The notes below the pieces were generated by a model. It saw only the letters and a list, made by a program, of their open reading frames with translations, did not search any database and had not been told where the DNA came from. From TPA_inf: Saccharomyces (Eukaryota): 64,000 bases of DNA. The stretch covers positions 1,216,001 to 1,280,000 of the forward strand of contig BK006938.2 of NCBI GenBank assembly GCA_000146045.2. Reading direction: 5' to 3'. How positions within the stretch are numbered: the stretch's first letter is position 1; each line of letters opens with the position of its first letter. Positions 20,558 to 41,079 of the stretch are shown piece after piece. The translations under genes and the position numbers were made by a program.

Positions 20558-20842
20558 ATGTCTGCTAACTTAGATAAATCCTTAGACGAAATCATTGGCT
20601 CTAACAAAGCAGGAAGTAATAGAGCCCGTGTCGGTGGTACTCGTGGTAACGGTCCAAGAAGAGTTGGTAAGCAAGTTGGTAGCCAACGTAGGAGCCTTCC
20701 AAACAGAAGAGGCCCTATCAGAAAAAATACTAGGGCACCTCCAAACGCAGTCGCTAGAGTTGCCAAGCTCTTGGACACCACTAGAGAGGTCAAGGTCAAC
20801 GTCGAAGGTTTGCCAAGGGACATTAAGCAGGATGCTGTAAGA
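20558..20842 (+). CDS. YRA1: YRA1 (YDR381W) exon 1, 95 codons; mRNA export adaptor (REF/ALY)
   Basis: Starts MSANLDKSLDEIIGS... and ends ...QDAVR, immediately followed by GTATGT. Confidence 0.9.
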
Positions 20843-21608
20843 GTATGTTAATACGTGAAATGAGAGCTATTTGTTTAGTTACTCGCATCGTCTCGTGTGG
20901 ATACGAGAAATATTCTTTGTAAGGAAGGATATGGCACACGCTTTTGATCAAGAATTCTCTTTTTAGAGATGAAGAAAGAGTCCGAAATACTTCGCTAGAG
21001 AAAATACAAAAAGAGTATCGTTTTCATAAGCCAACCATACCAATTTTTTTCAATACTTCAAATCATGGCCTATAAGGTTGGAATTACCAGCTACCACTGA
21101 GAATGGGTTTGTTCTTATTGGCTGGGTTAACTCAAATCAATCTGACTATCTGCTAATCTGTCAATCTTACATTTTTAAGCTGGCGTATTGTGTCGCCTCG
21201 ACCGTGATAGTTAGTTCCTATTTTTAATAAGCGTATCATCCAATACTGAAGTTGTGGAAGGATCAATTAATTTTGTATCCTTTCAAGAGGGAGTAGCTTT
21301 CAGTTTCGAATGGCACCATTTTCAAAAAATAGCTATGGGAAACATGTCTTTCATGAACGTTCGAAAAGATATGAGTGCATCGCTTCATTTTTTTATTATG
21401 ATAGTTACAAAAATATTTGATTTGAGACACCTAATGAAACCAAAGAGGAACTCACCCATCGTGGTACATGTTTATTTGAGGGTTTATTTTTCCTACGCAA
21501 TGGTATACTTTTAATACTCTCAACTCCTTGATTGTTTGTGTATTGTCCCTTCCTTCTTTGATTTTATATCATAGAGATATATGACTAACTTTTTTTTTTT
21601 TATTATAG
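20843..21608 (+). other. YRA1: YRA1 intron, 766 nt (GTATGT ... GACTAAC ... TATTATAG)
   Basis: 5' splice site GTATGT at 20843; branch-like gACTAAC at 21583..21589; 3' splice site AG at 21607..21608; joins exon 1 to the RRM-containing exon 2 in frame. Confidence 0.85.
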
Positions 21609-22004
21609 GAATTTTTTGCATCTCAAGTAGGTGGTGTTCAAAGAGTTTTGTTGAGTTATAACGAAAGGGGCCAATCTACTGGTATGGCTAACATCACATT
21701 CAAAAACGGTGAATTGGCCAGAAGGGCTGTTGAAAGATTTAACGGCTCTCCAATCGATGGAGGCAGATCAAGATTGAGACTTAACCTAATCGTTGATCCA
21801 AACCAACGCCCAGTCAAAAGTTTAGCCGACAGGATCAAGGCTATGCCACAAAAAGGCGGAAACGCTCCAAGACCAGTAAAGAGGGGTCCAAATAGAAAAG
21901 CTGCTATGGCAAAATCCCAAAACAAACCAAAGAGAGAAAAGCCTGCTAAGAAAAGTCTTGAAGATCTGGACAAGGAAATGGCGGACTATTTCGAAAAGAA
22001 ATAA
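21609..22004 (+). CDS. YRA1: YRA1 exon 2, 131 codons plus stop; total protein 226 aa
   Basis: Begins EFFASQVGGVQRVLLSYNERGQSTGMANITF (RRM) and ends in RGG-like and KR-rich tails. Confidence 0.9.
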   Translation, partial: EFFASQVGGVQRVLLSYNERGQSTGMANITFKNGELARRAVERFNGSPIDGGRSRLRLNLIVDPNQRPVKSLADRIKAMPQKGGNAPRPVKRGPNRKAAMAKSQNKPKREKPAKKSLEDLDKEMADYFEKK

Positions 22005-22311
22005 TTAATTGTCAATTTTTTGTTTGATTTAATTTGGTTTTATTAAATTTAATTTTTCCGAGTTTCATTATGTATTAGTTTCCAGAAAATTTAAAGGATT
22101 AAAAAATGTATTAATAAAACTTTGATATGTTTATGTAATAATATTTACCACCGCCACTAGGTGACGCTAACCTACTCATCGGTGACGGCTTTTCTCACTT
22201 TTAAAGTTTATTCGGCATATTTGACTCATAATATGTCACTATTTACAGTGCGATGAATATATATATACATAATACTGCATTGAAAAAATGGATAGGTTGA
22301 TTAAACGTGTG

Positions 22312-22630
22312 TTACTCGTTTCTCCTCCTATCTAAAAAACCTAATTTGTCACCTCTTTTTCTTGTTACAGCACTAAGCCCGCTACCTTCATATTTACTCT
22401 TTCTTACTAATTGATGGTCCTCAGAGCAATCAATGTTGTCTCCTCCATCTTTAGGTATGGGGAACCCTGGTTTGACTTGAGCAAGGTTATCATAATAGTT
22501 TTTTTCATTCACTTCACCATTGTTTCCCCGCGCCTTTGGTATAAATTTAGCATCTCTTCTAGCTTTCACTATGGTCTTGACCACATAAATAGACGCAATC
22601 CCGGCTGCAGAAATGTATAGTAAATTCTTA
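22312..22630 (-). CDS. YDR381C-A exon 2 (small mitochondrial outer-membrane protein); proposed intron complement(22631..22824)
   Basis: This open frame has no internal ATG and the ORF track starts it at TTG. It is translatable only from the upstream exon via an AG|T acceptor at 22630..22632. Confidence 0.5.
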
Positions 22631-22824
22631 CTGTTGAAATCGCATTGGTAGTGTTTTCCTACTTTCGTCTTCACTTTGGTTATATATATGGTGCAATCAA
22701 ACTCTGCTTCAAGGGATAGGCCAATAAGGAAATAACCAAAAAAGAAGTCCGGGAAATAGAAAAAGATATCCAATGTTAGTTTAGGCTTTACGAATAGATG
22801 TTTCCCTATTTCTTTTACACATAC

Positions 22825-22850
22825 CCTATATTTTGAAATGGATTTGACAT
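22825..22850 (-). CDS. YDR381C-A exon 1 (ATG TCA AAT CCA TTT CAA AAT ATA GG = MSNPFQNI-G), followed by GTATGT
   Basis: ATG at complement(22848..22850); GTATGT at complement(22819..22824); branch-like AACTAAC at about complement(22784..22790). Confidence 0.5.
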
Positions 22851-23029
22851 TGTATACTTAGTACGGCTCAAAGAATGAAATATTACTATATTTATCTCTT
22901 CATCTGCCTTGATTTTTTTATATGCAAGCAGGACGCTCGGGTTTGTAAGGAGGAAGATTGAAAAGGATGTCTTCAACTAAAAGGCGAAGAAGGAAGCGAC
23001 ACATTTGTGATGCTTTGAGGTCAGTAATG

Positions 23030-23031
<2 letters not shown>

Positions 23032-23061
<30 letters not shown>
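23032..23061. repeat. (AT)n dinucleotide microsatellite, about 14 units
   Basis: Uninterrupted atatat... run in the YDR381C-A/RPP2B intergenic region. Confidence 0.9.
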
Positions 23062-23491: not shown

Positions 23492-23824
23492 ATGAAATAC
23501 TTAGCTGCTTACTTATTATTGGTTCAAGGTGGTAACGCTGCCCCATCCGCCGCTGACATCAAGGCCGTCGTCGAATCTGTCGGTGCTGAAGTCGATGAAG
23601 CCAGAATCAACGAATTGTTGTCCTCTTTGGAAGGTAAGGGCTCTTTGGAAGAAATCATCGCTGAAGGTCAAAAGAAGTTCGCTACTGTTCCAACTGGTGG
23701 TGCTTCTTCTGCTGCTGCCGGTGCTGCCGGTGCTGCTGCCGGTGGTGATGCTGCTGAAGAAGAAAAGGAAGAAGAAGCTAAGGAAGAATCTGATGATGAC
23801 ATGGGTTTTGGTTTATTCGATTAA
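23492..23824 (+). CDS. RPP2B: RPP2B (YDR382W) ribosomal stalk protein P2 beta, 110 aa
   Basis: Starts [15 protein letters not shown] and ends [13 protein letters not shown] (the P-protein C-terminal motif); strong codon bias. Confidence 0.95.
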
Positions 23825-41007: not shown

Positions 41008-41079
41008 TGCGGAAGCCGGGAATCGAACCCGGGCCCCATGCTTGGGAAGCATGAATTCTAACCACTGAACCACTTTCGC
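41008..41079 (-). tRNA. tRNA-Gly, anticodon CCC, 72 nt
   Basis: Reverse-complement GCGAAAGTGGTTCAGTGGTTAGAATTCATGCTTCCCAAGCATGGGGCCCGGGTTCGATTCCCGGCTTCCGCA folds as a cloverleaf. The anticodon loop TTCCCAA gives anticodon CCC, and the T-loop is GTTCGATTC. The tRNA sits where SGD places a Gly tRNA between UBA2 and YDR391C. Confidence 0.85.

Follow-up and report, generated by a model that had tools for sequence, protein, structure and literature searches.

The split gene on the minus strand of this region is nuclear COI1 (YDR381C-A) of Saccharomyces cerevisiae. Its canonical 194-nt intron combines a distant branch site with a distal CAG acceptor, which is probably reached by way of a hairpin that bridges the interval between them and masks the AGs that lie within it. 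Positions are given in the window, by which we mean the whole 64,000-nt stretch of DNA that was analyzed; each window coordinate equals the chrIV coordinate minus 1,216,000, and the intron at 22631 to 22824 matches the published YDR381C-A intron (chrIV:1238630-1238824, length 194; see Supplementary Table 1 in PMC12350175). The gene was named COI1 by Singhal et al. 2017 (PMC5620370), and the same work describes Coi1 as a 12.7-kDa, 114-aa protein of the mitochondrial inner membrane with a transmembrane segment at aa 11 to 30, states that COI1 contains an intron, and reports that an intron-free construct complements the deletion. In the literature, Coi1 is a single-pass inner-membrane protein that aids the assembly of respiratory complexes III and IV. 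The gene, its intron, the function of the protein, and the mechanistic class are thus already known, and the intron is a named member of the class defined by Gahura et al. 2011 (NAR 39:9759, PMC3239191). The significance of the present results is mainly that of a confirmation, since it is already established how RNA structure can overcome a remote branch point; what the COI1 intron offers is a clean textbook case, whose branch-to-acceptor interval ranks among the longest in yeast.

Exon 1 (22825 to 22850, minus strand, as are all features of the gene) is 26 nt long, ATGTCAAATCCATTTCAAAATATAGG; it begins with the ATG, holds 8 codons, and ends in GG. It is followed by the consensus 5' splice site GTATGT (22819 to 22824), which is the sole 5' splice site-like hexamer in the pre-mRNA. 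The intron (22631 to 22824) runs from GTATGT to AACAG and is in phase 2, with the Gly9 codon split between the exons. The putative branch site, AACTAAC (22775 to 22781, branch A at 22776), was identified by its consensus and its conservation; it is the only heptamer in the intron with two or fewer mismatches from TACTAAC, and its one mismatch is at position 1. The 3' splice site used is the CAG at 22633 to 22631, a position that is kept in 6 species and that yields the annotated proteins, and its G lies 145 nt from branch A. Exon 2 (22312 to 22630; 319 nt including the TAA stop) carries the coding sequence from the third base of the Gly9 codon to E114 and encodes the transmembrane segment, aa 11 to 30. 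When 22825 is joined to 22630, the result is a 345-nt CDS that specifies a 114-aa product, MSNPFQNIGKNLLYISAAGIASIYVVKTIV...RGDKLGFLDRRRNE. Judged by its sequence, the COI1 intron thus has what is canonical for S. cerevisiae, namely, GTATGT, a match to the branch consensus, and a YAG that restores the colinear frame.

The original prediction had described a minus-strand frame of 153 codons that starts with TTG and lacks an in-frame ATG, which is exactly the ORF found at 22312 to 22773. It had placed exon 1 at 22850 to 22825 with a GTATGT directly after it, which we found at 22824 to 22819, and it had held that only the AG at 22632 to 22631 is productive, which proved true among all of the AGs tested downstream of the branch site (114 aa, MSNPFQNIGKNLLYISAAG...). 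Several of its measurements need to be revised. The AACTAAC branch motif is present, but at 22781 to 22775, nine bases away from the predicted 22784 to 22790; the distance from branch to acceptor is 145 nt by computation rather than about 155 nt; and the first skipped AG, TTGAAG, which had been put at about 22717, is at 22712 to 22707. The proximal AGs are indeed skipped and nonproductive, but they number 7 rather than about 8.

The split-gene model itself stands, in that it reproduces the published intron coordinates, the numbering of the 114-aa protein, and the colinearity with intronless orthologues. The peptides used to raise antibodies, LVRKSKYEGSGLSA (aa 83 to 96) and RGDKLGFLDRRRNE (aa 101 to 114) (PMC5620370), sit at the same numbers in the product that we derived, so any other N terminus would break the fit. 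A protein search with the 114-aa product returned 30 Coi1 homologues, all in the Saccharomycetaceae and several of them named Coi1p, while a Pfam search of the Coi1 protein returned no family. In an alignment of 11 orthologues, no variation is seen at M1, S2, N3, P4, F5, or G9 and hardly any at K10 and N11. The homologues in Nakaseomyces (two loci) and in Kluyveromyces dobzhanskii have no intron and read MSNPF[QK]N[IV]G[KR]N... without interruption, and the spliced 114-aa product aligns with these intronless orthologues from end to end. Because they are colinear with it across Gly9, the junction between exon 1 and exon 2 is confirmed independently of RNA data.

Published RNA data are in agreement with this junction. 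Reads joining exon 1 to a proximal AG, or leaving from a different donor, would argue for another gene model; published RNA-seq shows none, even in mutants defective in nonsense-mediated decay (NMD). For YDR381C-A, the splice sites are given as GTATGT and CAG, with no alternative junctions in the wild type or in upf1, upf2, or upf3 (Kawashima et al. 2014, Table S4), and the RPKM values in these four strains (28.1, 33.5, 27.2, and 28.5, respectively) are unchanged (Kawashima et al. 2014).

COI1 was found at syntenic loci in S. mikatae, S. kudriavzevii, S. eubayanus, S. uvarum, and a close relative (read-archive assemblies). All five have an exon 1 of 26 nt that is identical or nearly identical to that of S. 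cerevisiae, followed by GTATGT, a branch site of the form [AG][AG]CTAAC, and a distal acceptor; use of this acceptor, which was chosen on the requirement that it yield the annotated protein, reproduces the annotated 113- to 114-aa proteins. The recurrence of the same exon 1, splice signals, and distal acceptor in five other species is not due to chance. Across all six Saccharomyces species, the interval from branch to acceptor is 137 to 145 nt and contains 6 to 11 internal AGs. Outside Saccharomyces (loci L013, L014, L016, L012, L010, and L015 for the comparison of intron position), the orthologues of N. dairenensis, K. naganishii, and L. mirantina are interrupted at the identical codon (the Gly that follows N-[IV], again in phase 2), and the distance from branch to acceptor is 40 nt in N. 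dairenensis, 14 nt in K. naganishii, and 10 nt in L. mirantina. Unlike the Saccharomyces introns, these three lack a long hairpin. Since the interval is 10 to 40 nt outside Saccharomyces and 137 to 145 nt within it, the hairpin expansion of ~100 nt is seen, among the sampled genera, only in Saccharomyces, while the position of the intron is older and in other respects unremarkable. Nakaseomyces and K. dobzhanskii, on this comparison of sequences, are lineages that have lost the COI1 intron.

The same comparison bears on whether the 153-codon frame is translated as it stands, either unspliced from its TTG (MDIFFYFPDFFFGYF...) or from an intron-retaining transcript. In its favor, the exon 2 frame of S. 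cerevisiae happens to meet no stop anywhere in the intron and stays open for 73 codons before the acceptor. In the five other species, however, the same frame is open for only 5 to 21 codons upstream of the acceptor, which indicates that an ORF of 153 codons arose by accident in this one species. No homologue exists for the upstream extension, all orthologues start with M-S-(x)-NPF, and the published protein has 114 aa and a mass of 12.7 kDa (PMC5620370). Because the frame is not conserved, we reject TTG-initiated translation, which the comparative data effectively refute and to which we assign next to no probability. In S. cerevisiae, the exon 2 frame also runs through exon 1, in another frame than the one that is translated.

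According to a recent review, branch-to-acceptor distances normally span 11 to 60 nt and average 36, so the 145-nt interval is approximately four times as long as is usual in yeast. This distance would be only apparent if a cryptic, nonconsensus branch point close to the acceptor were used instead of AACTAAC, whose assignment is based on consensus and conservation. One relative (L006) has, by eye, a CGCTAAT about 17 nt upstream of its acceptor, which could serve in this way, but this heptamer is not conserved. In S. cerevisiae, no heptamer with two or fewer mismatches from TACTAAC (T4 and A6 kept) occurs between the branch site and the acceptor, and in none of the six species is there one near enough to the acceptor to be usable. 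In contrast, the CTAAC core of the [AG][AG]CTAAC branch site is invariant in all six species while the flanking intron diverges. We therefore regard a cryptic branch point as highly improbable and take AACTAAC, at 145 nt, as the putative branch site.

Seven AGs are skipped between AACTAAC and the CAG that is used (within 22659 to 22708, with the G at 22707, 22704, 22702, 22674, 22669, 22662, and 22659). As acceptors, these seven would give products of only 10 to 23 aa, and two further AGs just inside exon 2 would give products of 27 and 23 aa. The first skipped AG (the TTGAAG mentioned above) is 69 nt from branch A, and the pyrimidine-rich sequence that precedes it, which forms the 5' arm of the hairpin described below, has no AG for 68 nt; most of the AGs are in the purine-rich 3' arm. 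Since AAG and GAG are acceptors of inherently lower strength and account for five of the seven, masking may be of consequence for just the remaining two.

The original prediction held that skipping on this scale usually implies RNA structure that sequesters the proximal AGs, and folding the interval from branch to acceptor indeed predicts one long, imperfect hairpin (22643 to 22775) that bridges it and encloses all seven AGs; the idea of sequestration thus agrees with the modeled hairpin and, by analogy, with the published mechanism for introns of this class. Helix 1 pairs 22775-22770 with 22648-22643 (CAUUGG/CCAAUG) and starts one base after branch A, helix 2 pairs 22764-22754 with 22664-22654, and helix 3 pairs 22741-22732 with 22683-22674; the apical loop is at 22710-22705. 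Between the foot of the hairpin and the acceptor there are 12 unpaired bases (22631 to 22642), CGATTTCAACAG / CGAUUUCAACAG, which end in CAG. The minimum free energy (MFE) of the 145-nt interval is -31.6 kcal/mol, compared with -23.0 +/- 3.2 for dinucleotide shuffles, which is a z score of -2.65, and 2 of 200 shuffles are as stable. A second, separate calculation agrees with the -31.6 kcal/mol hairpin, and two inverted repeats located by a repeat finder (I1 and I4) independently match its arms. The whole 194-nt intron is not unusually stable (z = -0.56). The sampled ensemble of the S. cerevisiae hairpin is tightly defined, and in 500 sampled structures none of the seven skipped AGs is exposed. 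The hairpin persists in three of the four sequence contexts that were folded, and its helices have predicted probabilities of >0.93 from 16 to 46 C.

Based on these features, we propose that U1 would bind GTATGT and U2 the near-consensus AACTAAC, and that in the second catalytic step exon 1 would then be ligated at the CAG, 145 nt downstream of branch A. Folding of the interval into a single long hairpin, from one base after branch A to 12 bases before the acceptor CAG, would close the 145-nt gap; it would bring the acceptor as near to the branch point in space as in an ordinary intron and bury the seven nonproductive AGs. From the modeling, we infer that this hairpin forms in vivo in the COI1 intron and that acceptor choice would require it.

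The alternative is that the hairpin is incidental, and that the CAG is chosen without structural help because the proximal AGs are too far away or in poor context (AAG or GAG, as five of the seven are). A short U-rich stretch lies before the CAG, the second-step factors Slu7, Prp18, and Prp22 might cope with the distance, and any 145-nt RNA brings its ends close anyway. This last point is borne out by the shuffled sequences: their "effective distance" is also short (median, 17 to 24 nt; 95 to 99% at ≤45 nt). Since shuffled sequences are equally short, we dropped effective distance as evidence, and only the stability of the structure, its single-hairpin topology, and its conservation are informative. 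With respect to skipping, the AGs that are passed over include a CAG in good context (+72) and a TAG (+117), and no alternative junction appears even when NMD is lost, which speaks against the incidental reading. With respect to distance, artificial lengthening of the ACT1 branch-to-acceptor distance to ~120 nt abolished splicing (PMC3239191). In COF1 and UBC13, opening the stem led to use of the first exposed AG, and compensatory mutations rescued correct splicing (PMC3239191).

Conservation weighs in the same balance. A long hairpin is predicted in all six Saccharomyces species, with z scores of -2.6, -3.0, -1.1, -2.2, -2.7, and -1.7, so that its stability is above that of shuffles in most of them. 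The S. mikatae hairpin is the weak case and favors the incidental reading: its z score is -1.07, and on average about half an internal AG is exposed per sampled structure. The long stem is also missing when RNAalifold is run on a plain, unfitted MAFFT alignment of the six branch-to-acceptor segments, which recovers only 8 apical pairs; RNAalifold finds the apical stem alone because the purine-rich 3' arm aligns poorly. In contrast, when the pairs of the S. cerevisiae MFE structure are scored across species, 73% of cells are paired, compared with 37 to 48% when the partners are slid, and there are six double-sided changes. With an alignment fitted by a covariance model, 74% are paired, and nine pairs show double-sided changes, compared with one to five in the controls. 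Only six sequences, all related, underlie these counts, one of them also supplied the structure, and the 74% set uses an alignment fitted to that structure, so we read the covariation as supportive of hairpin conservation in the model rather than conclusive. Taken with pairing well above the slid controls and the presence of compensatory changes, we consider an incidental hairpin unlikely.

In S. mikatae (L001) and S. eubayanus (L003), unlike S. cerevisiae, some of the AGs enclosed by the hairpin share the reading frame of exon 2. Splicing to them would produce proteins of 121 to 128 aa in S. mikatae and 124 to 133 aa in S. eubayanus, with an insertion after Gly9.

The bridging and masking hairpin that we favor for COI1 has well-studied precedents. 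In the distant-branch-point (dBP) introns of COF1 and UBC13, the stems are required, shorten the distance, and mask cryptic or proximal AGs (Gahura et al. 2011, NAR 39:9759, PMC3239191). That study counted 22 yeast introns with a branch-to-acceptor distance of >60 nt, among which UBC13 ranks second with 155 nt, and it stated, as "data not shown," that both the sequence and the secondary structure of YDR381C-A are conserved in the same way (PMC3239191). The COI1 intron resembles those of COF1 and UBC13 in its canonical signals, in a distance far above 60 nt (155 nt in UBC13 and 145 nt in COI1), in a stem-loop that fills the interval, in silent proximal AGs that give no translatable mRNA, and in conservation within Saccharomyces sensu stricto. 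Of the properties that define this class, COI1 shows a distance that exceeds 60 nt, a predicted stem, and nonproductive AGs enclosed by it. The kind of evidence differs, since the requirement for the stem is established in COF1 and UBC13 by mutation and compensatory rescue, and in COF1 also by in-line probing, whereas in COI1 the stem is a predicted one and the requirement for it a proposed one.

An in vivo DMS survey published in 2025 (PMC12350175) describes downstream stems and the occlusion of cryptic acceptors as general features of introns. COI1 is like these downstream-stem introns in that its hairpin would lower the effective branch-to-acceptor distance and occlude cryptic 3' splice sites, but its interval is much longer than is typical of them. 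In that survey, COI1 had a coverage of 1375 and a replicate r2 of 0.21, which are below the threshold, and the survey reported no structure for it (PMC12350175).

A further likeness is to the APE2 thermosensor, in which an intronic stem hides an alternative AG, and heat opens the stem so that this in-frame AG is used (Meyer et al. 2011, via PMC11585973). COI1 differs from APE2 in that, in S. cerevisiae, all of its hidden AGs lead to premature stops and its helices are predicted to last to 46 C. We considered the COI1 intron as an RNA thermosensor and rejected this, because the predicted helix probabilities stay above 0.93 from 16 to 46 C and there is no productive in-frame alternative AG. A snoRNA or other RNA family hosted in the COI1 intron was likewise rejected: an Rfam scan of 22200 to 23000 gave no match except for a chance one (E = 2.4) on the opposite strand of exon 2.

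The retained-intron value of YDR381C-A is 0.756 without splicing inhibitor and 0.90 with it (PMC12350175 Supplementary Table 1), compared with ~0.005 to 0.06 for most introns in the portion of that table that we consulted. The value of 0.756 suggests unusually inefficient splicing or a stable pre-mRNA, although it comes from one low-coverage (1375) dataset obtained with a strain engineered for sensitivity to the inhibitor and concerns a gene with a 26-nt first exon (PMC12350175). If taken at face value, it would mean that the intron is mostly retained and that its architecture is regulatory: instead of merely selecting a 3' splice site constitutively, it would make the splicing of a respiratory assembly factor inefficient or conditional.

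A possible element for such regulation is the purine tract AAAAGAAATAGGGAAACAT (22798 to 22816), which lies 5' of the branch site, resembles the purine-rich 3' arm (inverted repeats I2 and I3), and can pair with the pyrimidine tract at 22740 to 22767, that is, with the same pyrimidine arm, placing the branch site in a loop. This pairing is the MFE structure in one of the four contexts folded and a minority of the ensemble, and the tract is not obviously conserved in the other species. The retained intron has an 11-aa ORF followed by a stop, and yet the mRNA level is insensitive to the loss of NMD. In addition, the predicted stability of the hairpin over the range of 16 to 46 C gives no reason to expect a thermal switch. 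We conclude that predominant, regulated retention is distinctly unlikely as an account of this intron. The related proposal that so extreme a hairpin slows or conditions COI1 splicing, such that a supercomplex assembly factor would be tuned at the second step, possibly through competition by the purine tract, we regard as speculative and, if anything, slightly less probable still. The favored reading remains a canonical intron whose distal CAG is probably reached by way of the hairpin.

Several minor features of the sequence were observed around the gene. A 10-nt inverted repeat with 90% complementarity relates the region of the start codon, UAUACAAUGU (22847 to 22856), to branch A and the bases that follow it, ACAUUGGAUA (22767 to 22776), on the minus strand. 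The CAUUGG next to branch A is also predicted to pair with the CCAAUG near the acceptor to form the foot of the hairpin; the repeat may be a matter of chance.

The convergent neighbor of COI1 is a plus-strand gene for a YRA1-type RRM protein of 226 aa (exon 1, 20558 to 20842; exon 2, 21609 to 22004), and a gene of this type adjoins COI1 in every genome-derived locus checked. Its 766-nt intron (20843 to 21608) starts with GTATGT, its branch site is GACTAAC (21583), and its exon 2, like that of COI1, appears in the list of ORFs as a frame that starts with TTG. On the other side of COI1 is the gene for a 60S acidic ribosomal protein (P2) (23492 to 23824), with a third gene farther out; the identity of these neighbors fits the assignment of the locus to YDR381C-A. 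The intergenic region between COI1 and the ribosomal protein P2 gene contains a (TA)14 microsatellite (23033 to 23060), about 180 bp 5' of the COI1 ATG. A tRNA-Gly (CCC) gene at 41008 to 41079 on the minus strand is the sole match to Rfam and ARAGORN in the 64-kb window.
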